Source of the DNA: a virus
Lineage: Duplodnaviria > Heunggongvirae > Uroviricota > Caudoviricetes
Reading direction: 5' to 3' (one strand)
IMG/VR virus record: IMGVR_UViG_2703718818_000014
Location: 1 to 11,010 of that record
DNA: 11,010 nt
The translations under genes were made by a program, and so were the position numbers. Under the pieces are notes generated by a model. That model saw nothing but the letters and a program-made list of their open reading frames with translations, had not been told where the DNA came from and made no database searches. Shown piece by piece: positions 1-11,010 of this stretch; positions within the stretch are counted from its first letter, which is position 1; the number at the start of each line of letters is the position of its first letter.

Positions 1-1242
1 ATGGCGAGAAAAACACCCCCATTAACCACAGTACAGATCAAAGCAGCCAGACCAGCAGAAAAGGAATACACCCTACAGGACGGCGGAGGGCTTTTTCTCC
101 TGATCAAACCGTCCGGATCAAAACTCTGGAGATTTTCCTACTACCGACCATCGGACAAAAAAAGAATATTGCTGAGTTTTGGATCGCTTGATGATGTTTC
201 CCTGGCTGATGCCAGAAAACGCCGTAGCGAGTACAGGGCGTTAATTCGTGCCGGAACTGACCCGCAGGACCACGAGAGGCAAAAAAGAGAGACAGAGGCC
301 CGAAGACAAGGGAACACGTTCGAAAATGTGGCAACAGCATGGTACCAGGTGAAAATCAGCCAGAATCTGGCCCCCAATACGATTAAAGACATCTGGCGAT
401 CGCTGGAAAAATATGTATTCCCGTTCATCGGCAACACGCCAATAGACACCCTGACCGCTCGCAGGTTCGTTGAGGTGCTTACCCCCATCAAGGAACGTGG
501 CAACCTGGAAACACTCAAACGGGTTTTACAGCGCGTTAATGAGGTAATGGATTACGCCGCCAACAGTGGGCTGATTGATGCCAATCCGGCTATGAATGTG
601 CGTAAGGCGTTCCCCTCCCCTGTAAAAAAACATATGCCAACAATCCGCCCCGAACAGCTGCCGGAGCTTATGCAGGCTTTATCAGTATCGGCAACAGAAC
701 GGCAGACCAGATTACTGATTGAATGGCAGTTACTGACCGTAACCCGTCCCGTTGAAGCATCGTCGGCACGCTGGGAAGAAATCGACATGGAAGCGCAACG
801 CTGGACCATACCCGCCGGACGCATGAAGATGCGCCGCGACCACGTTATCCCGCTTTGTGACCAGGCTATGGCAGTGCTGGAGGCTATGAAACCAATCAGC
901 CACCACCGCGATTATGTTTTCCCGAGTCTGAAAGACCCACAGCAGCCGATGAACAGCCAGACCGCTAACGCAGCATTACGACGCATGGGATTCGCTGGCG
1001 TGCTGGTGTCTCATGGATTACGCGCCATATTCAGCACAGCAGCGAACGAAGAAGGCTTTGAGCCGGACGTAATAGAGGCCGCACTTGCCCACGTCGACAC
1101 CAACGAAGTCAGACGGGCATACAACCGGAGCAACTACATAGAAAAACGCATCGTGCTTATGCGCTGGTGGGGCGAATTTGTCGAGGCTGCGGCGACGGGC
1201 GTAACCCTCGCCAGTGGTAAAAGGGGTATCCGAGCCGTTTAG
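1..1242 (+). CDS. int: Tyrosine site-specific integrase, P4 / CP4-57 IntA-like (413 aa)
   Basis: ATG at position 1, 413 codons. N-terminal ...GGGLFLLIKPSGSKLWRFSYY... typical of P4-family integrase arm-binding domains; C-terminal HGLRAIFST and RRAYNRSNY match the catalytic H-x-x-R and tyrosine nucleophile regions. Length equals the CP4-57 IntA class. Confidence 0.93.
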   Translation: MARKTPPLTTVQIKAARPAEKEYTLQDGGGLFLLIKPSGSKLWRFSYYRPSDKKRILLSFGSLDDVSLADARKRRSEYRALIRAGTDPQDHERQKRETEARRQGNTFENVATAWYQVKISQNLAPNTIKDIWRSLEKYVFPFIGNTPIDTLTARRFVEVLTPIKERGNLETLKRVLQRVNEVMDYAANSGLIDANPAMNVRKAFPSPVKKHMPTIRPEQLPELMQALSVSATERQTRLLIEWQLLTVTRPVEASSARWEEIDMEAQRWTIPAGRMKMRRDHVIPLCDQAMAVLEAMKPISHHRDYVFPSLKDPQQPMNSQTANAALRRMGFAGVLVSHGLRAIFSTAANEEGFEPDVIEAALAHVDTNEVRRAYNRSNYIEKRIVLMRWWGEFVEAAATGVTLASGKRGIRAV

Positions 1243-1264
1243 CTGTACAGAAAACCAGTAAAAA

Positions 1265-1297
1265 CTACGAAAACCATTTAAAACCGTCGTATAATTG
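1265..1297 (+). promoter_or_regulatory. Candidate sigma70 promoter (perfect -10 TATAAT at 1290-1295, weak -35)
   Basis: TATAAT hexamer at 1290-1295 in the int/alpA intergenic region; no convincing TTGACA-like -35 at 17 bp spacing, so weak. Confidence 0.25.
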
Positions 1298-1319
1298 CAT
1301 CACATTTAACGACGAGGCC

Positions 1320-1571
1320 TTGAAAAATGAAACTGTTAAGATGCAAACAAATTTCAGATGCAATTGCGACGGGCTGCAACTGGCCCTGATGGTTCAGCAT
1401 GAATTTTGGTCAACCTACGATCCGGAGGACAGAACGACGGCCCCATCAAAAAAACAGGTAGTAGATTTCCTGGTATCCCGTGGGGCTTCCAGAAATCTGG
1501 CTGTAAGTATTGATAAGGTTGTACGTCCGGCATCCATGAAGACCGGAGGCAGGCCAAAAAAATGGCGGTAA
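1320..1571 (+). CDS. Hypothetical small protein (83 aa from TTG 1320; first ATG at 1341)
   Basis: ORF ends 8 nt before a strong intrinsic terminator; no clear Shine-Dalgarno and no recognisable family, so the call is tentative. Confidence 0.3.
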   Translation: MKNETVKMQTNFRCNCDGLQLALMVQHEFWSTYDPEDRTTAPSKKQVVDFLVSRGASRNLAVSIDKVVRPASMKTGGRPKKWR

Positions 1572-1581
1572 CAATCCTGAA

Positions 1582-1605
1582 AGCGGCAGAAATGCCGCTT
1601 TTTTT
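1582..1605 (+). terminator. Rho-independent terminator
   Basis: Stem AGCGGCA / TGCCGCT (7 bp), loop GAAA, followed by a run of 7 T. Confidence 0.7.
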
Positions 1606-1633
1606 ATAAATCCCTTTCAAATCATCAATATAA

Positions 1634-1720
1634 AAAACGGTGTATACCGTTTAAAAACGGTGAGTACTGTTTTTCCCTGCATCCGATGATTTACCGTATT
1701 TCTCACCGGAATACACCGGA
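1634..1720. promoter_or_regulatory. Repeat-rich putative operator/promoter region upstream of alpA
   Basis: Direct repeat AAAAACGGTG at 1634-1643 and 1654-1663; palindrome ACGGTgtatACCGT at 1637-1650; direct repeat CACCGGA at 1704-1710 and 1714-1720; all within 100 bp upstream of the alpA start. Confidence 0.3.
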
Positions 1721-1738
1721 TTAATGAGGTAAATCACG

Positions 1739-1945
1739 ATGGAAGCAATCAAAAAAGTCATCTTTCGCCAGGAAGTAAAAAAACTTATCCACATCAAGGC
1801 AGACAGCACGCTTCAAAGCATGATCAACGCCGGAGAATTTCCGCAGGGTTTTCGCGTTGGTTTACGCCGTCGCGGATGGTATGAGGAAGACGTAATCGCA
1901 TGGATGAAAGAACGTGAGCAGGAAGCACGCGGAACGGCTGCGTAA
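1739..1945 (+). CDS. alpA: AlpA / Vis-family prophage transcriptional regulator (excisionase-like HTH), 68 aa
   Basis: ATG with GAGG Shine-Dalgarno 10 nt upstream. The segment MINAGEFPQGFRVGLRRRGWYEEDVIAWM matches the AlpA family signature (AGxFP ... G.R...W...I..W). Confidence 0.85.
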   Translation: MEAIKKVIFRQEVKKLIHIKADSTLQSMINAGEFPQGFRVGLRRRGWYEEDVIAWMKEREQEARGTAA

Positions 1946-2095
1946 TGGTGTGAGGCATAACACGATGAACATAACAAAAAGCGCCCCGTTGCCGGAACGC
2001 CCTTGTGAACAATTAACCTGCTGCGCCTTATGTGTATGTGATCCCAAACATAAGCACGGGAATGATAGCCGCTATCAGGCTGGTGGGCAATGTAA

Positions 2096-2275
2096 TTACC
2101 CTTTGGGTTCTATGCCGCGTTGCTGTAATTCTTTGCGGATTATTCGCTTTATCCAGGCAGCAAGAGAATCATCGCCGTCATGTTGTTGTGCCTTTTCCAT
2201 CTTTTCCCGTAAGTCAGGATCTAAACGGAACTGGAACGGAGGATTACCACGCCTTTCGTTTTTGTGTGTTGACAC
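2096..2275 (-). CDS. Small ribbon-helix-helix (Arc/MetJ-like) DNA-binding protein, paralogue 1 (59 aa, GTG start)
   Basis: My minus-strand translation: MSTHKNERRGNPPFQFRLDPDLREKMEKAQQHDGDDSLAAWIKRIIRKELQQRGIEPKG. Beta-strand / helix A / helix B pattern typical of RHH repressors. Below the length cutoff of the supplied ORF track. Paralogous to the ORF at 2780..2971, sharing start context and the C-terminal RGIEPKG. Confidence 0.45.
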   Translation of the reverse strand: MSTHKNERRGNPPFQFRLDPDLREKMEKAQQHDGDDSLAAWIKRIIRKELQQRGIEPKG

Positions 2276-2343
2276 GTTAATTACACCCCATGTAATGTAT
2301 TTATGTGTAGTGACACATTACAGACAATCAACACAAAAAGCAA

Positions 2344-2374
2344 AGCCCGCTGGAGCTATGAACACCAACGGGCT
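2344..2374. other. Conserved stem-loop A (minus-strand intrinsic-terminator-like; alternatively part of a small regulatory RNA)
   Basis: AGCCCG-c-TGG / CCA-a-CGGGCT stem. On the minus strand the stem is followed by TTTGCTTTTTGTG. Flanks AAAAAGCAAAGCCC ... GGGCTTCTAACC are shared with stem-loop B at 3043-3075, with compensatory changes inside the stem. Confidence 0.4.
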
Positions 2375-2494
2375 TCTAACCAAACCATTAATTGAGGTAA
2401 CGATTATGGCTATAAAAGAGCATAGCTTACTCTTTATACACACACAAACGCCCCGGAAACGGAATAATCCGTTTCATAGTTCGGTTTTGTGCAC

Positions 2495-2722
2495 TCATCC
2501 TGGCGGTCGGTTTTTGCCGGATTTAAGCCGCCGTGGGTATTTATCGACAAAATCTTCAAGGGCAAATTTTTCTGGTGGCACTAAGCGCGGCGCTGGTGGT
2601 GGTATTTTTGTTCTGGTTAGTTCTTCCTCAAGTCTGGCGCAGGCTTCTGACTGCCTTTGCCGGATGATTTCATCATCTTGCGTTTGCGTGTCTTGTATTG
2701 GTGATAGTGTGTTGTTGGTCAT
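2495..2722 (-). CDS. Hypothetical protein (75 aa)
   Basis: ATG start with AGGG 9 nt upstream; hydrophilic non-repetitive sequence; lies downstream of RHH paralogue 2 on the same strand and upstream of the minus-strand terminator-like stem-loop A. No family recognised. Confidence 0.35.
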   Translation of the reverse strand: MTNNTLSPIQDTQTQDDEIIRQRQSEACARLEEELTRTKIPPPAPRLVPPEKFALEDFVDKYPRRLKSGKNRPPG

Positions 2723-2779
2723 GATACTGCCCTGTAAAGCAATGCGCCGGAGTACCTCACACCACGGCGCTGATAGTTT

Positions 2780-2971
2780 TTATCCTTTGGGTTCTATACC
2801 GCGCCGCTTTAGTTCAGTGCGCCCCAACTCTTTAAGCCAGTTGGCTAGGCTTATGCCGTCGCTCTGTGCTTCTTTATCGAATTGCTCTTTTAGCTCTGGA
2901 GAAATTCGCATTCTGAATTGTGGGGATTGCCCGTCCCCTTTAGGGCTTTTATCGCGTTTGATTGTTGACAA
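2780..2971 (-). CDS. Small ribbon-helix-helix (Arc/MetJ-like) DNA-binding protein, paralogue 2 (63 aa from TTG 2971; alternative ATG at 2911 gives 43 aa)
   Basis: Translation ...STIKRDKSPKGDGQSPQFRMRISPELKEQFDKEAQSDGISLANWLKELGRTELKRRGIEPKG, collinear with paralogue 1 including N-terminal (M)ST.K. AGGTGA lies 4 nt upstream of the TTG. Confidence 0.45.
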   Translation of the reverse strand: MSTIKRDKSPKGDGQSPQFRMRISPELKEQFDKEAQSDGISLANWLKELGRTELKRRGIEPKG

Positions 2972-2972
2972 G

Positions 2973-3013
2973 TGGTCACCTATTGAATTAGCCTTTCTAT
3001 TGTTAGGTGACCA
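2973..3013. promoter_or_regulatory. 10-bp inverted repeat, candidate operator (TGGTCACCTA ... TAGGTGACCA)
   Basis: Perfect 10-bp inverted repeat at 2973-2982 and 3004-3013 between the RHH paralogue 2 start and stem-loop B. The analogous position in module A has a different inverted repeat (TGTAATGT 2291-2298 / ACATTACA 2315-2322). Confidence 0.35.
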
Positions 3014-3042
3014 CCTTAACACAAGAGCACTTAAAAAAGCAA

Positions 3043-3075
3043 AGCCCCGCAAGTGTCATTACCACTCGCAGGGCT
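3043..3075. other. Conserved stem-loop B (paralogue of stem-loop A)
   Basis: AGCCC-c-GCAAGTG / CACTCGC-a-GGGCT. Same flanking sequence as stem-loop A; on the minus strand followed by TTTGCTTTTTT. Confidence 0.4.
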
Positions 3076-3105
3076 TCTAACCAACAACGTAAACTAGGAG
3101 CCGTT

Positions 3106-3663
3106 ATGGTTGCTGTAAATCATATACCACACCTTGTACACACACAAACGGCCTTTGTGTGGCGTTTTCTGGCCCTGAATATCGGAGAAAAAAACCAGTT
3201 GATCGCCAGTGTCGAAAATAGCTATGATTCCCGCGCACCTCATAAAACGGGTGCCGGGATTGGCGTCCTGGGCAAAACTGAAGCGCATAACACGCGCCCC
3301 GCGTGTTTTTTTGTGCCGCATAGTCACACCTTATCAATGGTGGGCTGTACGGGGGCGGAGCAATCCGCGCCGGTTTCTTCAGTGTCCGGTTACGCCAACC
3401 CTGTACAGTCCGCCACCAGCGAAATTGGCGTTTCCGGTGGCGGTTATCTTAACCACACTGAGGAGGCTGCCAACATGGCTACTATCCCTACCCTTGTACA
3501 TTCTCAAACCGCCTTTCTCTGGCGCTTTATCATCTTTGGCGCGTCAGAACATCAAATCATCCACGTAACCGCCTGGACGGAACGCGAAGCGCGTAACCGT
3601 TGCCCGTCAGGTTGTGTTGCTGTATTTGCCGCTCGTATTCGTCAGGGGTCACATCATGCGTAA
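3106..3663 (+). CDS. Tandem small-protein paralogue units B1 and B2 in one open frame (possible Icd-like proteins); B2 may initiate independently at 3475
   Basis: ATG 3106 with AGGAG 5 nt upstream. An internal ATG at 3475 has GAGGAGG 9 nt upstream and encodes MATIPTLVHSQTAFLWRFIIFGASEHQIIHVTAWTEREARNRCPSGCVAVFAARIRQG. B1 begins MVAVNHIPHLVHTQTAFVWRF..., and the frame stays open from 3106 to 3663 across an internal terminator-like hairpin. Family assignment is from memory of the motif only. Confidence 0.4.
   Translation: MVAVNHIPHLVHTQTAFVWRFLALNIGEKNQLIASVENSYDSRAPHKTGAGIGVLGKTEAHNTRPACFFVPHSHTLSMVGCTGAEQSAPVSSVSGYANPVQSATSEIGVSGGGYLNHTEEAANMATIPTLVHSQTAFLWRFIIFGASEHQIIHVTAWTEREARNRCPSGCVAVFAARIRQGSHHA
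3289..3312 (+). terminator. Intrinsic terminator / attenuator inside the B1-B2 leader
   Basis: Stem AACACGCG / CGCGTGTT with a short loop, followed by a T run (GTTTTTTTG). Confidence 0.5.
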
Positions 3664-3949
3664 AAACCGCTTGCAAAAAATTATCACGGGGCTGTATGCT
3701 TCCCCCGTCGCCCACATGGCGACCGGGTTTGACAGCCTGAATAAATTGGCGGACAGCCGCCCATATCCGATAAGCGGTTTTTTTGTGTCCGTAAACCTAC
3801 CCATACCCGCATTATGGCGGGGCGTAACGGGGGAGCCTTTGCGCTCGCTGGTTTCCCAATTTGCCAGTCTGTCAACCCTGTTACGTCTCGCCACCATGTT
3901 TGACAGCGTAGTAGCGAGACTCCTTAACATTAAATTGGGAGCCTTTCAC

Positions 3950-4123
3950 ATGGCTGTATCCGCACGCCCTTACTTTGTCTGGCGCTTTATGCAGTGCCAC
4001 CACAGCAACATTGATGTATTCACCGTTACCGCAGCCACTGAACGCGAAGCCCGCGCCCAGCTGCCGCACGCACATCTGATTCTTGTCGCCCGTATTCGTC
4101 AGGGGAAAACCTATGCACAATAA
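3950..4123 (+). CDS. Small-protein paralogue unit B3 (57 aa; possible Icd-like); frame is open upstream to ATG 3656
   Basis: ATG 3950 with GGGAG 8 nt upstream; MAVSARPYFVWRFMQCHHSNIDVFTVTAATEREARAQLPHAHLILVARIRQGKTYAQ shares F.WRF, TEREAR and ARIRQG with unit B2. The upstream in-frame extension (3656-3949) is homologous to the B1-B2 leader at nucleotide level but in a different reading frame, which argues it is non-coding. Confidence 0.45.
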   Translation: MAVSARPYFVWRFMQCHHSNIDVFTVTAATEREARAQLPHAHLILVARIRQGKTYAQ

Positions 4124-4373
4124 AACCACACCGGACGCAGCAGCCGCCGCGCTCACTACGCTGATGCATGCGCTGATTGATATTTCTGTTATTGCTGACA
4201 GGGCGCATAAGCACGCCACCAGTGAAACAGAATATGCTGGGGCTTTCGTTCCTCATTCGCTGGCGGTTATGCAACTTAGTGCGGATATGGCGCTGAATGA
4301 GGCCAAAGCCATCCTGATTGCTGATTGTGAAAATGGGGGGGGGTTATGCGTGATGATCGTTTTAATTCCCTGA
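4113..4373 (+). CDS. Hypothetical small protein (86 aa)
   Basis: First ATG of the frame, overlapping the stop of unit B3; first gene of a tightly packed run of small ORFs leading into the primase gene. Contains a G9 homopolymer near its 3' end. Confidence 0.4.
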   Translation: MHNKTTPDAAAAALTTLMHALIDISVIADRAHKHATSETEYAGAFVPHSLAVMQLSADMALNEAKAILIADCENGGGLCVMIVLIP

Positions 4374-4567
4374 AACAGGAATTTTCCGGCGTTCCTGATG
4401 ATGCGGTTGATGCGCTTTCGTTAATATCTGAAATTATGCGGGTGGCTTTTTTCTTTCTTTGCACTGATGAGCACAGAGATACAGGGCTAAATATTCTTGA
4501 TATTGCCGCTAACTATGCCGATTTCGTGACAGAAGCTGTTTTAAGAAAAACAACGGACGGGGATTAA
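4346..4567 (+). CDS. Hypothetical small protein (73 aa)
   Basis: ATG 4346 immediately after the G9 run, which doubles as its Shine-Dalgarno; overlaps the preceding ORF by 28 nt. Confidence 0.45.
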   Translation: MRDDRFNSLKQEFSGVPDDAVDALSLISEIMRVAFFFLCTDEHRDTGLNILDIAANYADFVTEAVLRKTTDGD

Positions 4568-4568
4568 T

Positions 4569-4802
4569 ATGCGTGATATTTATCTTGAAACAATAGACCG
4601 CGCATTTCTTGCACTTTCTCACAGTGAAAACATGCTGGAAATATTGCGCATATGGCTTGAAACACTTGGCGACAATGAACGCGACAAACAAAAATCAAGA
4701 ATTGCCACGGCATTAATAACGCTTCTTGAGCCTGTAATAATGGAACTGCAAGAAATAGATCTATTGCACGACAGATATAAAGAACAGCACACCGGAGAAT
4801 AA
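4569..4802 (+). CDS. Hypothetical small protein (77 aa)
   Basis: ATG 2 nt after the previous stop, preceded by GGACGGGGA; acidic helical-looking sequence. Confidence 0.5.
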   Translation: MRDIYLETIDRAFLALSHSENMLEILRIWLETLGDNERDKQKSRIATALITLLEPVIMELQEIDLLHDRYKEQHTGE

Positions 4803-4807
4803 AAATA

Positions 4808-5107
4808 ATGAAACTTAAATATTCTGGCTTAACTGCCAGTGGCAACACTCACCCTAAATTTACGCGCGGTGATATTTACCGCGACCAGTACGGCGGCACG
4901 GTAATGATTAAGGGCGTGGAAGAACGGCGTGTAACCTACCGCCGTGAAGGTTACGAATATGATTGCGTGATGCCTGTTTATCAGTTCCGGCGTGATTTTT
5001 CTCTGGTACAGACCGCGCCGCATAACGTGCCCACCAGCAACGCCAGGGCACGGGCAAACATCCAGAAGCTGAAAACCATGATTAACGGATTCAGGGGTAA
5101 AAAATGA
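4808..5107 (+). CDS. Hypothetical small protein (99 aa), translationally coupled to the primase gene
   Basis: ATG 4808 with GGAGA upstream; its stop overlaps the primase start in an ATGA arrangement. Resembles from memory small conserved proteins found beside primase genes in P4-like islands (unverified). Confidence 0.5.
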   Translation: MKLKYSGLTASGNTHPKFTRGDIYRDQYGGTVMIKGVEERRVTYRREGYEYDCVMPVYQFRRDFSLVQTAPHNVPTSNARARANIQKLKTMINGFRGKK

Positions 5108-6858
5108 AACTGGCACCGAACGTAAAACAGCAGTCACGCGGCATAAAACACAAAGGAACAGAAGTCATTATTTTTGCGGGTAGTGATGCCTGGGCACACG
5201 CGAAACAATGGCAGGAACATGATGCGCGTATGGCCGGAGATAATGAGCCTCCTGTGTGGCTTGGGGAGCAGCAGTTATCAGAGCTGGATAAGCTGCAAAT
5301 TGTGCCGGAAGGCAGAAAATCCGTGCGCATATTCAGGGCCGGATATCTTGCGCCAGTAATGATAAAGGCGATTGGCCAGAAGCTGGCGGCGGCAGGCGTA
5401 CAGGATGCAAATTTTTACCCTGATGGTATGCACGGTCAGAAGGTGGAGAACTGGCGCGAATATCTGGCCCGTGAGCGCCAGAATCTTTCTGATGGTCTGG
5501 TCATTGAGCTTCCGGTAAAGCAAAAGGCGCAACTTTCGCAGATGGCGGACAGTGAGCGCGCGCAGCTGCTTGCCGATCGCTTTGATGGCGTTTGCGTACA
5601 TCCTGAAAGTGAAATCGTTCACGTATGGCGCGGCGGGGTATGGTGTCCGGTCAGCACAATGGAGCTTAGCCGCGAAATGGTGGCGATCTATTCAGAGCAC
5701 AGGGCCACTTTCAGCAAGCGCGTAATCAATAACGCCGTGGAAGCGTTAAAAGTTATTGCCGAACCAATGGGCGAGCCGTCCGGCGATTTGCTGCCGTTCG
5801 CCAATGGTGCGCTTGACCTGAAAACGGGGGAATTTTCCCCGCACACGCCGGAGAACTGGATCACCACGCACAACGGCATTGAGTACACGCCACCAGCACC
5901 AGGGGAGAACATCCGCGATAACGCGCCAAACTTTCATAAATGGCTTGAGCACGCAGCCGGAAAAGACCCGCGCAAGATGATGCGTATATGTGCCGCGCTG
6001 TACATGATTATGGCGAACCGGTACGACTGGCAGATGTTTATTGAGGCCACCGGAGACGGCGGGAGCGGTAAAAGTACATTCACGCACATAGCCAGCCTTC
6101 TGGCAGGGAAACAGAACACGGTAAGCGCTGAAATGACGTCGCTTGATGATGCTGGTGGACGTGCGCAGGTTGTCGGGAGTCGTCTTATCGTCCTGGCTGA
6201 CCAGCCGAAATATACAGGCGAAGGAACGGGCATCAAGAAAATCACGGGCGGTGACCCCGTGGAAATTAACCCGAAATACGAAAAGCGTTTCACGGCTGTA
6301 ATCAGGGCGGTGGTGCTGGCGACCAACAATAACCCGATGATATTCACCGAACGGGCCGGAGGTGTGGCACGTCGTCGCGTGATTTTCCGTTTCGACAATA
6401 TCGTCAGTGAGGCCGAAAAAGACAGGGAGCTACCGGAAAAGATTGCGGCTGAAATCCCTGTCATTATCCGCCGATTGCTGGCGAACTTTACCGACCCTGA
6501 GAAGGCACGGGCTTTACTACTGGAACAGCGTGACGGTGATGAAGCACTGGCAATAAAGCAACAGACGGATCCGGTTATTGAGTTTTGCCAGTTCCTGAAT
6601 TTTCTGGAGGAAGCACGCGGCCTGATGATGGGCGGCGGTGGCGATTCAGTGAAGTACACGACCAGAAACAGCCTTTACCGCGTCTATCTGGCGTTTATGG
6701 CGTACGCAGGCAGGAGCAAACCGCTAAACGTAAATGACTTTGGCAAGGCTATGAAGCCAGCCGCGAAAGTTTACGGACATGAATATATTACGCGGAAAGT
6801 TAAAGGAGTAACGCAGACTAACGCAATAACAACAGACGATTGCGACGCGTTTTTATAA
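5104..6858 (+). CDS. Replication protein: P4-alpha-family primase/helicase C-terminal-type P-loop NTPase (SF3/D5-like), 584 aa
   Basis: Walker A GDGGSGKST, Walker B-like RLIVLADQP and SF3 motif C VVLATNNNP in the C-terminal half; sits directly upstream of an iteron array. Confidence 0.85.
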   Translation: MKLAPNVKQQSRGIKHKGTEVIIFAGSDAWAHAKQWQEHDARMAGDNEPPVWLGEQQLSELDKLQIVPEGRKSVRIFRAGYLAPVMIKAIGQKLAAAGVQDANFYPDGMHGQKVENWREYLARERQNLSDGLVIELPVKQKAQLSQMADSERAQLLADRFDGVCVHPESEIVHVWRGGVWCPVSTMELSREMVAIYSEHRATFSKRVINNAVEALKVIAEPMGEPSGDLLPFANGALDLKTGEFSPHTPENWITTHNGIEYTPPAPGENIRDNAPNFHKWLEHAAGKDPRKMMRICAALYMIMANRYDWQMFIEATGDGGSGKSTFTHIASLLAGKQNTVSAEMTSLDDAGGRAQVVGSRLIVLADQPKYTGEGTGIKKITGGDPVEINPKYEKRFTAVIRAVVLATNNNPMIFTERAGGVARRRVIFRFDNIVSEAEKDRELPEKIAAEIPVIIRRLLANFTDPEKARALLLEQRDGDEALAIKQQTDPVIEFCQFLNFLEEARGLMMGGGGDSVKYTTRNSLYRVYLAFMAYAGRSKPLNVNDFGKAMKPAAKVYGHEYITRKVKGVTQTNAITTDDCDAFL

Positions 6859-6869
6859 TTTGTTGCAAT

Positions 6870-7100
6870 GGCTGTCTACCCTGTCTACCTGAGTAAAGAA
6901 AAATACATTTAATTCAGTACATTAACTTGGGTAGACAGCCTTTTTTTACTGTCTACCTACTATCTACCCTCTCTACCTGATTTTACCTGAATCAGACAGG
7001 GAGGTAGATACGGGGTAGATAGTGGATAAAAGCACTCTACCCCACTGAAAGCCGCGCCATTACTGGCATGGTGGCCAGTAAGGTAGATAAGGTAGACAAG
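6870..7100. repeat. Iteron array / candidate origin of replication
   Basis: At least 11 copies of the core TCTACC / GGTAGA (mostly as octamers TGTCTACC or GGTAGACA / GGTAGATA) in both orientations: 6873-6880, 6882-6889, 6930-6937, 6950-6957, 6961-6968, 6971-6977, 7003-7010, 7014-7021, 7035-7041, 7082-7089, 7091-7098. Perfect 12-bp inverted repeat GGCTGTCTACCC (6870-6881) / GGGTAGACAGCC (6929-6940) flanks an AT-rich spacer; further inverted repeat TTACTGGC / GCCAGTAA at 7060-7081. Confidence 0.7.
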
Positions 7101-7146
7101 GGGAGGCACAACTCAAAACTTTTTAAACGAGGGGGTAAAAATAAAA

Positions 7147-7404
7147 ATGCGCACATCAGGAAAACTTAATAATCAGAAGAAGCAGCATAACCGCGCCATT
7201 GACCTTACAGAGCACTGGCTGAGAGTGGCGATAAAAATCATCGACCGCAACACGGGGGAAGGATACGCGAAAGCACATCCCGAACTGATAAGCGCATTCA
7301 TGACCACGACGGCGGCAAACTTTGCCACGCTGACAGAACGGGAGATTGCCGAAGCGGAACAGGTAACAACCATCAACGTTAAAACCGGAGAGGTGGAATC
7401 ATGA
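7147..7404 (+). CDS. Hypothetical protein (85 aa), translationally coupled to ssb
   Basis: ATG 7147 with GAGGGGG upstream; its stop overlaps the SSB start (ATGA). Confidence 0.5.
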   Translation: MRTSGKLNNQKKQHNRAIDLTEHWLRVAIKIIDRNTGEGYAKAHPELISAFMTTTAANFATLTEREIAEAEQVTTINVKTGEVES

Positions 7405-7811
7405 CAGCACAGATAGCAGCTTACGGGCGGCTGGTGGACGACCCGCAGGTAAAACAGACCAGCAAGGGCACACCAATGACGCTGGCACGTATGGCGGTAT
7501 CGTTGCCATGTAGTCAGGCGCAGGATGGGCAGGCTACGTTATGGCTATCGGTGATGGCATTTGGTAAGCAGGCCGACTTCCTGGCTAAACATCAAAAAGG
7601 CGACGTTGCCAGCGTATCCGGCACGATGCAGGTCAGCCAGTGGACCGGACAGAACGGGGAAATGCGGCAGGGTTATCAGGTTATTGCAGACAGCGTAATC
7701 AGTGCCCGTGCGGCACGTCCTGGCGGGAACAGACGCAAAACCACAGGCACACAGGGTAATCAGCCACCAGCGGGAGACGATGACCCCTACGGTGATGATA
7801 TTCCGTTCTGA
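7401..7811 (+). CDS. ssb: Single-stranded DNA-binding protein (SSB) homologue, 136 aa
   Basis: Strong Shine-Dalgarno GGAGAGGTGGA; OB-fold-like pattern (GRLVDDPQV ... FGKQADFLAKHQKGDVASVSGTMQVSQWTGQNGEMRQGYQVIADSV); C-terminus DDDPYGDDIPF matches the SSB acidic tail (DDDIPF). Confidence 0.8.
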   Translation: MTAQIAAYGRLVDDPQVKQTSKGTPMTLARMAVSLPCSQAQDGQATLWLSVMAFGKQADFLAKHQKGDVASVSGTMQVSQWTGQNGEMRQGYQVIADSVISARAARPGGNRRKTTGTQGNQPPAGDDDPYGDDIPF

Positions 7812-7819
7812 ACGCACAG

Positions 7820-7841
7820 GCCGGAGAAAATCCGGCTTTTT
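7820..7841 (+). terminator. Rho-independent terminator after ssb
   Basis: GCCGGA gaaaa TCCGGC followed by TTTTT; almost identical to the hairpin at 9731-9753. Confidence 0.75.
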
Positions 7842-7845
7842 GTAT

Positions 7846-7893
7846 CCAAAAAAAGCCCGATAAGTACAGGAGGAAGCTTATCGGGCTTTTGCT
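7846..7893. terminator. Bidirectional terminator-like hairpin
   Basis: 11-bp perfect stem AGCCCGATAAG / CTTATCGGGCT (7853-7863 / 7877-7887) flanked by an A7 run upstream and TTTTGCTT downstream. Confidence 0.65.
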
Positions 7894-7964
7894 TACGAGG
7901 TTAACAGCATGGTGACTACTGTTGCTGTAAATTATTTCATAATTTGCAACGCAACTCAATTTCA

Positions 7965-8025
7965 TTGCACAAAATGCAATCATGATTATAATCACAACTG
8001 GATGAACATCCAGTTATGGTTTTTT
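7965..8025 (+). promoter_or_regulatory. Candidate promoter and leader hairpin of the capsid operon
   Basis: -35 TTGCAC (7965-7970), 16-bp spacer, perfect -10 TATAAT (7987-7992); directly downstream an 8-bp stem AACTGGAT / ATCCAGTT (7996-8015) followed by a T6 run (8020-8025). Confidence 0.3.
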
Positions 8026-8048
8026 AAGTCAAAGAGGAATTTCTGACT

Positions 8049-8255
8049 ATGGCTGAAGAGAAAAAAGGCGGTGTTTCGGTGTACATAAGCCCCGAAATCG
8101 TGGAGGTGCTCAAGCAGCGCCACAAAAAAAACTATGAGGCTGGCGTAGCGGCTGGACTGGATCCGCTGATGACGCCGGAGCCGTCGATAGGTTCACTTGT
8201 GCGCTCTTATTTACTTGCGGCGCTTGGGATGCATAAAAATTATGGGGGTGAATAA
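8049..8255 (+). CDS. Hypothetical protein (68 aa), first gene of the capsid operon
   Basis: ATG 8049 with AGAGGA upstream; its stop overlaps the capsid gene start (TAATG). No family recognised. Confidence 0.5.
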   Translation: MAEEKKGGVSVYISPEIVEVLKQRHKKNYEAGVAAGLDPLMTPEPSIGSLVRSYLLAALGMHKNYGGE

Positions 8256-9310
8256 TGACAGGCAAAGCAACGGCACTTAACACTAACCAGCTTTTCATGT
8301 ACCTGAATCGCGGGGATATTGCGGATTTTAAATTCAGCCCTCTGTTTACTACGCTGTTTTTCCCGAACGTGGCGACATTCAGCACGCAAAACATCATGCT
8401 GGACACCCTGGACATTGAAGAGGTTACGATGTCGGCGTTTTGTTCGCCTATGGTGGGTAGTCAGGTCCAGCGCGATAAAGGGTACGAAACCAGCACGATT
8501 AAACCTGGATACATGAAGCCGAAGCACGAAATCGATCCAACGAAAACCATCATGCGCATGGCCGGAGAAGATCCGGCACAGCTTAACGACCCTACCTATC
8601 GCCGTATGCGCCTGATTACTGGCAATATGCGCCGCCAGGTAAACGCCATAAAAGCGCGCGTGGAATGGCTGGCGGTAAATGCGGTAACGACCGGAAAAAA
8701 CATCATTGAGGGCGAAGGCATAGAACGCTATGAAATCGACTGGAAGATACCGGAAAAAAACATCATAGAGCAGGCCGACGGTAAAAAATGGTCTGAGCAG
8801 GATAAAGACATACACGACCCAATATATGACATTGAACTATACGCAGATCAGGCAGGTTGCCCCGCCAACGTCATGATTATGGGCGTTGATGTATGGCGCA
8901 TGTTACGCAGCTTTAAAAAATTCCGTGAACTGTACGATCTCTCCCGTGGTTCAGAATCCGCCGCAGAGCTGGCATGTAAAAACCTGGGCGAAGTGGTGAG
9001 CTTTAAAGGCTATCTTGGTGATCTGGCCCTTATCGTCTATTCCGGCAAATACACTGACAGCGACGGCACAGAAAAATATTTCCTTGAGCCTGATTTGCTG
9101 GTCCTGGGCAACACCAACAATAAAGGGCTGGTGGCCTATGGTGCGATTATGGAACAGGAAGCGGTAAGAACGGGCGCAACGCAAAACATGTTTTACCCGA
9201 AAAACTGGATTGAAGACGGCGATCCGGCGATTGAGTACGTGCAGACACACAGCGCACCGCAGCCTGTTCCGGCAGATATTCGAAAATTTGTTACCGTCAA
9301 AATTGGTTAA
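8255..9310 (+). CDS. Major capsid protein, phage lambda gpE family (351 aa)
   Basis: Collinear with lambda gpE as I remember it: FKFSPLFTTLFF vs FKFDPLFLRLFF; PGYMKPKHEIDPTKTIMR vs PGYVKPKHEVNPQMTLRR; DPTYRRMRLITGNMR vs DPAYRRRRIIMQNMR; C-terminal YPKNWIEDGDPAIEY vs YPKNWVTTGDPAREF. Length close to gpE (341 aa). Confidence 0.9.
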   Translation: MTGKATALNTNQLFMYLNRGDIADFKFSPLFTTLFFPNVATFSTQNIMLDTLDIEEVTMSAFCSPMVGSQVQRDKGYETSTIKPGYMKPKHEIDPTKTIMRMAGEDPAQLNDPTYRRMRLITGNMRRQVNAIKARVEWLAVNAVTTGKNIIEGEGIERYEIDWKIPEKNIIEQADGKKWSEQDKDIHDPIYDIELYADQAGCPANVMIMGVDVWRMLRSFKKFRELYDLSRGSESAAELACKNLGEVVSFKGYLGDLALIVYSGKYTDSDGTEKYFLEPDLLVLGNTNNKGLVAYGAIMEQEAVRTGATQNMFYPKNWIEDGDPAIEYVQTHSAPQPVPADIRKFVTVKIG

Positions 9311-9321
9311 CGGTGGATTCT

Positions 9322-9657
9322 ATGAACACTCCATACATTGAGTTATTTGCAGGCAGTCAGCAGGTATCAACGACACTGGTACATTTTGCCGCTGATGCTG
9401 GCGTTATTCAGGAATTTACCCCGCTGATGCTGGCGGACAATGGCGAGTTTAAGCCGTGGGATGGTCAGGAATCTGGCAAGGCTGTTTATCTGACCTCGTA
9501 CCCCGTTGACACGTCGACGCAGAAATCAGCACAGTGCTATAAGACGGGGATATTTAATATCGCCGCCGTTAACTGGCCTGAGAGCGTCGACACCGATGCG
9601 AAAAAATGCGCCGCCTTTGCGGGTTCTGGCGTATCCGTTCAGCCGCTGGCGCGATAA
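9322..9657 (+). CDS. Head decoration protein, phage lambda gpD family (about 111 aa; alternative GTG start at 9313)
   Basis: TPLMLADNGEFKPWDG vs lambda gpD TPLMLDTSSRKLVAWDG; YKTGIFNIAAVNWPESVDTDAKKCAAFAGSGVSV vs [35 protein letters not shown]. Sits immediately after the capsid gene. Confidence 0.85.
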   Translation: MNTPYIELFAGSQQVSTTLVHFAADAGVIQEFTPLMLADNGEFKPWDGQESGKAVYLTSYPVDTSTQKSAQCYKTGIFNIAAVNWPESVDTDAKKCAAFAGSGVSVQPLAR

Positions 9658-9730
9658 GCAGGGGGAACGATGGCAGAAAGCCGGGCGATGACGGCGACAT
9701 CGATCGCATACTGAAAACCATCTGAGACAG

Positions 9731-9753
9731 GCCGGAGAAATCCGGCTTTTTTT
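9731..9753 (+). terminator. Rho-independent terminator after the decoration gene
   Basis: GCCGGA gaaa TCCGGC followed by T7; same hairpin as 7820-7841. Confidence 0.75.
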
Positions 9754-9930
9754 ACGGGTCCTTTCCGGCATATGGACCCGTTACGGGGCGGCGACCTCGC
9801 GGTTTTTCGCTATTTATGAGCCTTTTCAGGGGGGTGGTGGTGGTTTTGTTGTTTGCTCTATCTTTATGAATGAAAAGGGAAAGATGCAAACAATACACCA
9901 ACCTGAAGCAGTAATTAAGTTGGTGTATTA
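9754..9930 (+). other. cos site 1: lambda-type cosQ-like/cosN region with a non-lambda cosB
   Basis: CCGTTACG-GGGCGGCGACCT-CGCGGTTTTTCGCTATTTATGA, with the 12-nt cohesive-end sequence at 9786-9797 matching lambda cosN and its right flank. Downstream there are no lambda R-sites; instead G6(TGG)3 at 9826-9840, inverted repeat TTGTTTGC / GCAAACAA, and 11-bp inverted repeat AATACACCAAC (9892-9902) / GTTGGTGTATT (9919-9929) abutting the terS start. Confidence 0.75.
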
Positions 9931-10473
9931 ATGAAATCGCACCTGATGAACAAAAAAAACATGGCGAAAAGCTGCCGTGTAAGTGCGACAGCGTTCGACA
10001 AGTGGGGAGTGACTCCCGTTGAACGTAAAGGCCGTGAGGCGTTTTATGATGTTGCCAGCGTGATAGACAATAGGGTTAACAATGCAATTAGCCAGCTTAC
10101 AAACGACAAAGGCGATATTGATGATGCTGAACTCTTACGAGTCAGGATCAGATTACTGACAGCACAGGCGGAGGCGCAGGAACTTAAAAACGAGCGCGAT
10201 CGCGGTGACGTGATTGATACTGAGTTTTGCCTGTACGCGCTTTCAAAGCTGGCGAGTCAGATTTCATCAATCATGGACAGCCTCCCGCTTAATATGCAAA
10301 GGAGCTTCCCACAGATTCCCCCCGCCATGCTGGACAGGCTTAAAAGGGAAGTGGTTAAAGCCTGTAATGGCAGTGCCAGAGTTGCCGACAACCTCCCACA
10401 GATACTGGCTGATTACTTGAAAGAAACAACCGGAAACGTACCGGAAAAGTTGCTACAGAAGAAAGGCGAGTAA
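9931..10473 (+). CDS. Terminase small subunit, lambda gpNu1 family (180 aa; homologous start may be ATG 9946)
   Basis: C-terminal two-thirds collinear with lambda Nu1: LTAQAEAQELKNERDRGDVIDTEFCLYALSKLASQISSIMDSLPLNMQRSFP vs LTRAQADAQELKNARDSAEVVETAFCTFVLSRIAGEIASILDGLPLSVQRRFP. The N-terminal DNA-binding region is recognisably related but far more divergent. No obvious Shine-Dalgarno at either start. Confidence 0.88.
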   Translation: MKSHLMNKKNMAKSCRVSATAFDKWGVTPVERKGREAFYDVASVIDNRVNNAISQLTNDKGDIDDAELLRVRIRLLTAQAEAQELKNERDRGDVIDTEFCLYALSKLASQISSIMDSLPLNMQRSFPQIPPAMLDRLKREVVKACNGSARVADNLPQILADYLKETTGNVPEKLLQKKGE

Positions 10474-10479
10474 CCGCAG

Positions 10480-10697
10480 CGCAATTATTGAACAAAACTG
10501 AGAAACGACATGAAAGCGTCATAAATCGCCATTTCAGATGATTACCGTGTCGTTTCTTTTTATTGTGTATCTATTTAAAAACAAATAGTTATGTTCGAGA
10601 AGTACCGACATGATTTTTCCAGAAAAATTTTCATAAACAGATAAAAACCGCGAGGTCGCCGCCCCGTAACGGGCCATAATTCCAGGAAGGACCCGAC
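10480..10697 (-). other. cos site 2 (inverted): lambda-type cosQ-like/cosN with lambda-like cosB (R3-, R2-, R1-like elements)
   Basis: Reverse complement of 10653-10664 is GGGCGGCGACCT. The minus strand reads CCCGTTACG-cosN-CGCGGTTTTT...TTTATGAAAATTTTT...TCGGTACTTCTCGAACATAACT...AAAAAGAAACGACACGG...CTGAAATGGCGA...CATGTCGTTTCTCAGTTTTGTTCAATAATTG, collinear with the lambda left end through R3, R2 and R1 up to where the Nu1 ATG would be. There it meets the 3' end of the plus-strand terS. Confidence 0.75.
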
Positions 10698-10728
10698 GAC
10701 ACCAGACTATCAGAACGATGGGGGCACA

Positions 10729-11010
10729 ATGACAGAAGCCGAACTACTGCGATTAATCCGTCGCGTTGCCGGAATCAGCCAGCAGGCTGACGAACAGGCC
10801 ACGCAGCCGGACAGCGTGACCGCCGAAAATTATGCGCGTGTGGTTGCTGAGGTGATGCGCCGTGACGGTATTGAGCTTAACGGCGTGGATATGCGCGACA
10901 TACGGATCCGCGTTCTGGAAATGCTGGCCTACAATCGCCGCGTTGAACTGTATCGGGAGAAAGAAAAAATTACGTACCACTGGAAGAAGCCGGAGCGGTT
11001 ACGGCGATAA
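10729..11010 (+). CDS. Hypothetical protein (93 aa)
   Basis: ATG 10729 with GGGGG upstream; stop is the last codon of the window. Arg-rich C-terminus; no family recognised. Confidence 0.5.
   Translation: MTEAELLRLIRRVAGISQQADEQATQPDSVTAENYARVVAEVMRRDGIELNGVDMRDIRIRVLEMLAYNRRVELYREKEKITYHWKKPERLRR

Follow-up and report, generated by a model that had tools for sequence, protein, structure and literature searches.

We analysed positions 1 to 11,010 of the IMG/VR virus record IMGVR_UViG_2703718818_000014 (Caudoviricetes), a stretch of 11,010 nucleotides that we call the window. It is a cos-type phage-inducible chromosomal island (PICI) of the EcCIIHE3034 type, that is, a terS-type member of the Gram-negative EcCICFT073/EcCIIHE3034 family. 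Its small-terminase gene, terS, lies between two oppositely oriented lambda-type cos sites, which are the cos1 and cos2 of that family. The first, cos1, is probably the island's own site, because it has a fixed position, contains an invariant block resembling the R3 element of phage N15, and precedes a TerS whose DNA-binding domain is like that of N15 gp1. The second, cos2, is by its sequence a complete phage-type cos captured from phages and inverted between terS and the neighbouring gene orf93. The reading we prefer, with a probability of roughly 0.6, is that the island can be packaged either from cos1 via its own TerS or from cos2 via the terminase of the helper phage itself.

Two cos sites in inverted orientation around terS

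An earlier note, made from the letters of the window alone, had described a perfect 31-bp inverted repeat around a Nu1-family terS, with a full nicking module in each copy. We recovered the repeat, with copy 1 displaced by one nucleotide (9777-9807, not 9778-9808) and copy 2 at 10643-10673. In the window no exact inverted repeat is longer than this one, and 20 shuffles produced repeats of 12-20 bp. It forms the core of longer arms, 9755-9826 and 10624-10695, which the repeat finder reported as 82 % complementary over 72 nt. Both copies do carry the nicking module, composed of the cosQ core GGGTCCT, the 12-nt cohesive end of lambda (GGGCGGCGACCT) and an I2-like sequence, and the first base of the cohesive end, G1, is at 9786 on the plus strand and at 10664 on the minus strand. 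The terminators predicted at both cosN are the G+C-rich cohesive-end sequence followed by T's, and a promoter scan around both sites found no promoter-like sites. Ahead of cosQ1 we observed a terminator-like hairpin (9729-9748; 8 pairs, 5 of them G-C) whose T run continues straight into cosQ1; it may end the capsid-decoration transcript just ahead of cos1.

Regarding novelty, the earlier note knew of no such layout in described PICIs. The arrangement is already known, because EcCICFT073 has the same inverted pair around rppA, published as cos1 and cos2 in 2018-19. The note's proposal of a private cos plus a helper-compatible cos has stood up better: an invariant cosB1 is found together with an N15-like TerS domain, the cosB2 alleles are of phage type, and the published experiments on EcCICFT073 agree. 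Besides the layout of EcCICFT073, a search for the arrangement elsewhere found 487 of 5,426 complete E. coli genomes, as well as dozens of IMG/VR contigs, with the 1,031-bp cos1-terS-cos2 segment (98 % identity, coverage of at least 80 %).

cos2 and its phage relatives

On the minus strand cos2 aligns with lambda from cosQ to just ahead of the Nu1 start. Its R-like repeats fall at bp 52 (direct), 107 (inverted) and 152 (direct), compared with 53, 108 and 155 in lambda. Beyond bp 31 cos2 resembles phage cosB with high significance (z=9.7 against lambda, 14.1 against CFT073 prophage 4 and 13.9 against PhiR5_1), which bears out the collinearity with lambda cosB noticed earlier. The elements of cos2, with nucleotide diversity (pi) where it was determined, are the following.

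10474-10499, minus strand: inner end of the putatively captured cos, Nu1 5'-leader-like GTTTTGTTCAATAATTGCGC, 3-6 nt short of the phage Nu1 ATG position and abutting the terS stop codon
10500-10514, minus strand: R1-like TTCATGTCGTTTCTC, about bp 152 from the cos2 nick, a direct repeat of R3 and an inverted repeat of R2
10545-10558, minus strand: R2-like AAGAAACGACACGG, about bp 107, inverted relative to R3 and R1
10559-10593, minus strand: I1-like A/T-rich segment in the R3-R2 interval, at the position of the lambda integration host factor (IHF) site
10594-10613, minus strand: R3-like TCATGTCGGTACTTCTCGAA, about bp 52
10614-10652, minus strand: I2 segment of cos2, pi=0.04
10653-10664, minus strand: cosN2 cohesive end (AGGTCGCCGCCC on the plus strand), pi=0.006 in 28 unique sequences
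10665-10697, minus strand: cosQ2 (core GGGTCCT, 10688-10694 on the plus strand), pi=0.002, an island-specific variant common to EcCICFT073 cos2

The I1-like segment keeps cataact..tgttttta when aligned with lambda I1. The R3-like core TGTCGGTACTTCTCGAA is identical to R3 of CFT073 prophage 4, which encodes a phage 21-type TerS (PMC9026076), and many E. coli prophage cos sites match the stretch at the R3-like element at 94 % identity. In the alignments with PhiR5_1, CFT073 prophage 4 and lambda, the phage homology sets in at cosQ and breaks off at AATTGC, 3-6 nt short of the Nu1 ATG of PhiR5_1, close to where the earlier note had placed the expected Nu1 start. Because the homology runs from cosQ to just before Nu1, the capture spans the first to the last recognised cos element and brings no flanking phage DNA. 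The GGGTCCT core, the 12-nt cohesive end, I2 and three R repeats expected of a lambda-type cos are all present; Nu1 and A do not follow downstream in the same orientation, the next gene being the opposite-strand terS. We also considered that cos2 might have arrived together with an orf93-like phage gene and rejected this, as no homologue of orf93 was found in 50,697 phage records.

For the variation of cos2 we surveyed about 85 loci, consisting of 80 IMG/VR loci with TerS relatives 80-98 % identical to that of the window, plus E. coli loci for different mosaic classes; relatives were taken from IMG/VR and from a search for encoding contigs. Throughout the window type, cos2 keeps one cosQ2, cosN2, I2 and terS-side junction, and its R3-R1 stretch occurs in three forms, each with one core shared by R3, R2 and R1: TGTCG in the window (allele a), GATCC (allele b) and a form like that of prophage 4 and phage 21. 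The R elements are intact in every allele, and R1, R2 and R3 switch together. The existence of three alleles explains the high diversity of the R3-R1 stretch (pi 0.22-0.40, compared with 0.10 at terS third codon positions). Allele b resembles the cos of phage SerU-LTIIb.

Other islands have their own phage counterparts. The cos2 of EcCICFT073 (locus L005, 3095-3345) matches, at 93 % identity over 179 nt, the cos of PhiR12_1-PhiR12_5 (L098, 1501-1679, for PhiR12_1), located directly upstream of the Nu1 and A genes of these phages, and contains the repeat ATGTCCGGTT at bp 51, 108 and 138. The cosB regions of EcCICFT073 were published as 'completely divergent' from phage cosB (PMC6092414, PMC6739421), a label that goes back to the phages available for comparison in 2018; we found no paper in the literature searched that makes the link between EcCICFT073 cos2 and PhiR12. 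On sequence grounds the PhiR12 phages are obvious candidates for cognate helpers of EcCICFT073. A third type of cos2, that of L008, is 86-88 % identical to the cos of phi458/mEp460, which lies upstream of a different kind of small terminase. The phi458-type cos has CACCACCA at bp 51-58. In every type examined, cos2 thus reads as a copy of a real helper-phage cos.

cos1 and the island TerS

The position of cos1 hardly varies: it is exactly 145 nt ahead of the terS ATG in 80 of 85 loci, and the exceptions have a 3-nt shift or another called terS start. Its elements and terS are arranged as follows.

9754-9785, plus strand: cosQ1 (core GGGTCCT, 9756-9762) and spacer to the nick, aligning with lambda cosQ and present upstream of every terS relative examined
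9786-9797, plus strand: cosN1 cohesive end GGGCGGCGACCT, the same as in lambda
9798-9834, plus strand: I2-like segment of cos1 (CGCGGTTTTTCGCTATTTATGAG...), aligned with I2 of lambda and N15, near-invariant in 48 unique cos1 regions
9835-9853, plus strand: candidate TerS-binding site (R3 equivalent) TGGTGGTGGTTTTGTTGTT, bp 50-68 from the nick
9895-9907, plus strand: invariant cosB1 block ACACCAACCTGAA, left arm of an 11-bp inverted repeat (9893-9903 / 9920-9930)
9931-10473, plus strand: terS, 180 aa, Nu1/gp1-family small terminase with an N15-like DNA-binding domain, a Nu1-like C-terminal region and a 12-aa tail

In 48 unique E. coli cos1 regions neither TGGTGGTGGTTTTGTTGTT nor ACACCAACCTGAA varies, despite a variable cohesive-end sequence; the right arm of the 11-bp inverted repeat (9920-9930) is not conserved in them. 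Islands of Citrobacter and Enterobacter have GGTGGTGGTGTTGTTGTT at the position equivalent to TGGTGGTGGTTTTGTTGTT. The lambda-type R repeats are lacking in cos1 (no R2, I1 or R1), and its cosB side compares with phage cosB at z of only 2-4.

A known counterpart is phage N15. Work of the Feiss laboratory, reviewed in PMC9026076, gives it a cosB made up of one R3, GAGGTTGTTGTTT, at bp 48-60. The two systems share the absence of R2, I1 and R1, a TTGTTGTT-containing block at the R3 position and a small terminase with the same recognition segment. They differ in that the island block has an extension of (GGT)3 and stands some 9 bp farther from cosN, the terS start codon is at bp 146 instead of 89, the island TerS has an extra 12 aa at its C-terminus, and no TerL (large terminase) gene is adjacent; nothing in N15 corresponds to the second invariant block, 9895-9907. 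The island TerS would bind the TGGTGGTGGTTTTGTTGTT block.

We noticed that the 12-nt cohesive end of cos1 differs among related islands (L007, L008, L056 and L086, with GGGCGTCAGGCG, GGGCGGCAGACG, GGGCGGAAGGCG and GGGCGGCTGACG), in which cosB1 and the DNA-binding domain of TerS are unchanged. In L016, L017 and L025-L028 the cohesive ends of cos1 and cos2 differ by one base.

TerS belongs to Pfam family PF07471 (Phage_Nu1; E=9e-23, 81 bits with a cut-off of 30) and to phrog_57 (E=1.6e-51). Full-length BLASTP alignments, the N-terminal DNA-binding region included, gave 46 % identity to N15 gp1 (E=4e-53) and 35 % to lambda Nu1 (E=2e-34). The protein is closest to N15 gp1 also in the recognition helix, where the segment AFDKWGV is identical. 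Within E. coli the DNA-binding domain is almost invariant, and TAFDKWG persists out to the 59 %-identical proteins of Citrobacter and Enterobacter, whose C-terminal third diverges. Residues ~127-166 align with the C-terminus of lambda Nu1, and this C-terminal region may recruit the TerL of the helper. Diversity at the three codon positions of terS (0.030/0.025/0.098) indicates purifying selection.

Rpp proteins are related to RppA/B/C and act only as a heterodimer with the phage TerS. The window protein falls outside this class, having 180 aa and a Nu1-like C-terminal region, compared with 135-153 aa and no TerL-binding tail in Rpp. It shows no sequence-level relationship to RppA (17 % identity, hhalign E=0.79), and a sequence search of solved structures gave no match to Nu1 or Rpp chains.

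Gain, loss and constraint of cos2

Among the surveyed loci cos2 was found in the following states, three loci having been reassigned by eye.

30 loci: cos2 of the window type
10 loci: remnant of the window type that keeps cosQ2 and has lost cosB2 and half of cosN
3 loci: related type with a different cosN
10 loci: third type, inserted after the first four orf93 codons, with the orf93 start duplicated
23 loci: no cos2 (orf93 11 nt after terS)
9 loci: truncated at a contig end

cos2 is thus an accessory module, and cos1 is universal. Some islands without cos2 have a TerS 94-98 % identical to that of the window over residues 1-174/178, so cos2 has been gained and lost among close relatives. The earlier note would have taken single-cos relatives as a sign of an assembly artefact or chimera; such relatives do exist, but what they reveal is the accessory nature of cos2. 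Capture of a phage cos at the same slot has occurred at least twice, with differing junctions (T1/T2 versus T3). In one third-type island, L075, five tandem ATGACC repeats stand at the orf93 start (~3290-3330); the other third-type islands have a single duplicated start (ATGACCGAAGCC ... ATGACCGAGACC).

To compare constraint we used 28 unique window-type sequences, which are mutually related, and the Fisher tests given below overstate their independence. The fractions of segregating sites, with p values against the cos2 core, were as follows.

cos2 core (cosQ2-cosN2-I2, 10623-10697): 0.13 (10 of 75 sites)
terS codon positions 1+2: 0.14 (p=1)
terS codon position 3: 0.44 (p=1e-6)
neighbouring spacer: 0.35 (p=0.015)
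cos1 core: 0.30 (p=0.018)

These values fit purifying selection on a putative nicking and termination module in cos2.

Comparison with known systems

EcCICFT073 has the same order of elements, namely E-like capsid, D-like decoration, cos1 (+), a packaging-specificity gene, cos2 (-) and orf93, with cos1 at L005 2559 (+), rppA at 2660-3094 and cos2 at 3309 (-). Its flanking genes are 89-96 % identical to those of the window, few or no differences separate the cosQ1-cosN1 and cosN2-cosQ2 arms of the two islands, and in both one site is island-specific and the other is not. Between the sites, however, it encodes the 135-aa RppA in place of the 180-aa Nu1/gp1-type TerS of the window, and it has a different cosB2 allele and ACC repeats in cosB1 where the window has GGT repeats. 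At the R3 position of cos1 we observed (GGT)n in the window (9835-9846) and (ACC)n, on the opposite strand, in EcCICFT073 (L005 2609-2621), at nearly equal distance from cosN though TerS and RppA are unrelated in sequence. The window island probably replaces the helper TerS, rather than pairing with it as Rpp does.

Published experiments on EcCICFT073 showed that either cloned cos makes a plasmid transducible, that deletion of cos1 lowers transfer and the double deletion abolishes it, and that only the cosB of cos1, the island-specific site, responds to Rpp (PMC6092414, PMC6739421). Since only the double deletion abolishes transfer, cos2 alone supports residual transfer. Why two cos sites are kept is a question raised by the group that discovered them.

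The named islands EcCIIHE3034 and EcCI18098, listed as encoding TerS (PMC6092414, Table S1), are 98 % identical to the window over cos1-terS-cos2 and carry the same cosB2 allele; they differ by about 360 bp (a 137-aa open reading frame, ORF) between the decoration gene and cos1, absent from the window. In the literature searched we found no packaging-site analysis of these terS-type islands.

With lambda, cos2 shares the set of elements, I1 being represented by the I1-like segment, in order, orientation and spacing, as well as the identical 12-nt cohesive end. It differs in its R-site sequence, which is like that of phage 21 and PhiR5_1, in having no Nu1 and A after it and abutting instead the 3' end of the oppositely oriented terS, and in its location in a satellite island without a large terminase gene. 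The pac-type Staphylococcus aureus pathogenicity islands (SaPIs) follow the same logic, a satellite small terminase redirecting the helper large terminase to a satellite site, with other protein families and in other hosts. For SaPIbov4, which like SaPIbov5 is a cos-type SaPI, two putative cos sites were reported (PMC6092414). We found no description, in the literature searched, of a SaPI combining its own TerS, a private cos and a helper-type cos.

Proposed packaging from two sites

In lambda, terminase bound to cosB nicks cosN, remains on that side of the nick and moves away from cosQ; packaging terminates when terminase meets the next cos from the cosQ side. Applied to the window, cos1 (+) would be a lambda-type nicking and termination module (cosQ, cosN, I2) joined to an island-specific cosB. 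TerS would bind TGGTGGTGGTTTTGTTGTT with its putative winged-helix N-terminus and recruit helper TerL with its Nu1-like C-terminal region, and the complex would package rightward from cos1, pass cos2 in its non-terminating orientation and end at the next cos1. A helper TerS/TerL holoenzyme at cos2 would package the same concatemer leftward and end at the next cos2. Both routes would produce a whole unit of the island whose cohesive ends are compatible. If both sites of one unit were cut, the 0.88-kb terS fragment would be freed and the ends would bear identical, non-complementary overhangs. Because such double cutting would give dead ends, cos2 should be costly when cos1 works well and should often be lost, in keeping with the increased transfer of EcCICFT073 when cos2 is deleted and with how often cos2 has been lost in nature. 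Its plausible but unproven benefit would be a second entry for helpers whose TerL fails to pair with the island TerS. Exchange of the cosB part of cos2 with phage cos regions would make islands differ in helper specificity.

A further step, which we put forward tentatively and hold to be somewhat less than an even chance, is that cos2 is an adaptive, exchangeable 'helper adaptor': the cos of local helpers would be captured repeatedly, always inverted beside the packaging gene, and its cosB allele swapped by recombination, so that cos2 serves as a fallback when the pairing of TerS or Rpp with cos1 fails. The anatomy of the sites, their homologies, their distribution among islands and their conservation are what the sequences show; which protein reads which site here, and that cos2 is adaptive, we infer.

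Several points weigh against these readings. The nearest phage in the collection is only 82 % identical for allele a (PhiR5_1; 73 % for allele b), and in 101 E. coli genomes with allele a its cosB occurs at one place per genome, with no prophage carrying the same cosB at the megablast level. That the R sites change together could be due to recent copying from phages and not to selection within the island, and the low diversity of the cos2 core, besides coming from related sequences, could result from recombinational spread of one version. On the side of cos1, the TTGTTGTT match with N15 R3 is a short one, displaced by about 9 bp. AlphaFold gave a TerS model of low confidence (pLDDT 56, a predicted per-residue confidence score), whose N-terminus, modelled as helix, helix, beta-hairpin and helix, is at pLDDT <50. 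C-terminal alleles of TerS that would track the cosN1 type as an adaptation to helper TerL were looked for and no link was seen. EcCIIHE3034 was hardly transferred by its own resident prophages (<1 to 40 transductants). Deletion of cos2 gave higher transfer of EcCICFT073 (PMC6092414), and cos2 could be mildly harmful baggage.

This last thought leads to the alternative that cos2 is a non-functional or mildly harmful recombination remnant, kept by linkage and slowly lost, with only cos1 mattering. The lack of a co-resident prophage with matching cosB and the transfer gained by deletion both speak for it, as do the absence of cos2 from 23 of 76 informative loci (about a third), its reduction to a remnant in 10, and the Citrobacter and Enterobacter islands (TerS 59 % identical), which have a single cos and never cos2. 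Nevertheless we consider it unlikely, as the nicking core of cos2 is constrained like the non-synonymous sites of terS and more conserved than the core of cos1, the three R sites are intact in every allele and change jointly, the capture extends from the first to the last cos element without flanking phage sequence and took place at least twice at one slot with different junctions, and EcCICFT073 retains residual transfer with cos2 alone. The recombination scar suggested in the earlier note is therefore acceptable as an account of origin, cos2 having been captured from phages, but it leaves the conserved nicking core and the joint R-site change unexplained.

cos2 might instead be a decoy directed against the helper, a replicated helper-type cos that soaks up terminase or provokes unproductive cuts and thereby reduces the phage yield, in place of Rpp interference. 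cosB2 is of helper type with alleles that differ by helper specificity, terS-type islands have no Rpp, and PICIs reach high copy number after induction (PMC6092414). We find this quite improbable, since the Rpp-type EcCICFT073 also has cos2, which is then no substitute for Rpp, and since no part of cos2 is better conserved than cosQ2 (pi=0.002), which a decoy could do without.

Flipping of the 0.87-kb terS segment between the inverted repeats, switching two packaging states, seems very improbable: the repeats (31 bp perfect, 72 nt at 82 %) are a possible substrate for homologous recombination, but no inverted isomer was seen in about 85 loci, and full-length matches in complete genomes are all single collinear pieces. 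Capsid, decoration, terS and orf93 have one orientation in all these loci (tblastn), so the terS segment does not flip. An assembly artefact or chimeric contig, for which nothing speaks beyond the unusual look of the arrangement, is ruled out by the 487 complete genomes, the EcCICFT073 and IHE3034 reference genomes and many independent metagenome-derived contigs. Lateral transduction as a rationale for opposed sites was also rejected: according to the literature it is not carried out by cos phages, and there would be no terminal cos.

The island and its neighbouring genes

The window encodes an integrase, a D5-type primase, SSB, a lambda E-like capsid, a D-like decoration protein, TerS and a 93-aa ORF, and the edges of the window coincide with the island ends. 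Besides the two sites already described, it has the following landmarks.

1-1242, left end: tyrosine integrase (PF00589, E=3.6e-29)
5104-6858: D5_N primase, replication module
10729-11010, plus strand: orf93 (phrog_1561), the conserved right-hand neighbour, 11 nt after terS where cos2 is absent

The left-end integrase, the primase module, the size of ~10-12 kb and the absence of lysis, tail and large-terminase genes are those of a cos-PICI; capsid, decoration and terS are the only morphogenetic genes in the 11-kb window. cos1 and cos2 stand on either side of the packaging-specificity gene, in the positions and orientations known from EcCICFT073. In E. coli IHE3034 a 98 % identical copy lies between cspD and clpS, which is the attachment site listed for the named PICI EcCIIHE3034 (PMC6092414, Table S1); islands of this family have dedicated attachment sites that prophages do not use. 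An island of the window type with the same cosB2 allele (98.6 % identity) is also present in E. coli Nissle 1917. Pattern scans of genome contigs, combined with capsid and TerS alignments, gave pattern matches and zero confirmed relatives.

We noticed several further features of the island. Compared with locus L001 (11601-12060), the window (9658-9753) is missing the ~360 bp that IHE3034 and CFT073 have between the decoration gene and cos1. In relatives this region is an ORF of 127-137 aa, annotated in some as AlpA-like or helix-turn-helix; 14 codons of it are left in the window (9669-9713), and the short form is found likewise in L044-L046. Accessory and defence genes are frequent in such islands at the slot between the integrase and the regulatory region. 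In the window this slot is occupied by a 388-aa ORF (1914-3080) with no match in Pfam, PHROGs, NCBIfam or PADLOC. Two overlapping long ORFs (3007-3663 and 3614-4123) both terminate in an Icd-like cell-division-inhibitor domain (NF033153, E=1.7e-16 and 8.8e-14), and the real genes are probably the short C-terminal parts, as in the IHE3034 annotation. terS-type islands also occur within prophages (L007 6332-8699; L091-L094 6122-8513), where they are accompanied by a truncated lambda-type major capsid gene and then FI, head-tail and tail genes; they are the helper-embedded kind of PICI described in PMC10111431, and all those seen have a single cos.

Meaning for the island family

The layout with opposed cos sites was known; what is new is the comparative evidence on the nature of cos2 and a terS-type member of the cos1/cos2 family. 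A fixed cos1 tied to an N15-like TerS, a cos2 with phage-type alleles, and a cos2 that is accessory and never inverted appear to be undescribed in the literature searched. The comparison also corrects the published impression that EcCICFT073 cos2 has no phage-like cosB.

In E. coli, genes for virulence and anti-phage defence are disseminated by PICIs. About 9 % of complete E. coli genomes carry the island type studied here, among them those of Nissle 1917, O157:H7 and neonatal-meningitis strains. That cos2 is a copied helper cos may explain why such islands keep two sites, and the two-cos question becomes testable, with cos1 as the fixed private site and cos2 as the swappable helper copy. The suggested helpers are PhiR5_1-like or 21-like phages for the allele of the window, PhiR12 for EcCICFT073 and phi458/mEp460 for the third type. 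If cos2 does act as a helper adaptor, the helper range of an island would be predictable from its cos2 sequence, and pairings of satellites with helpers may be readable from sequence.

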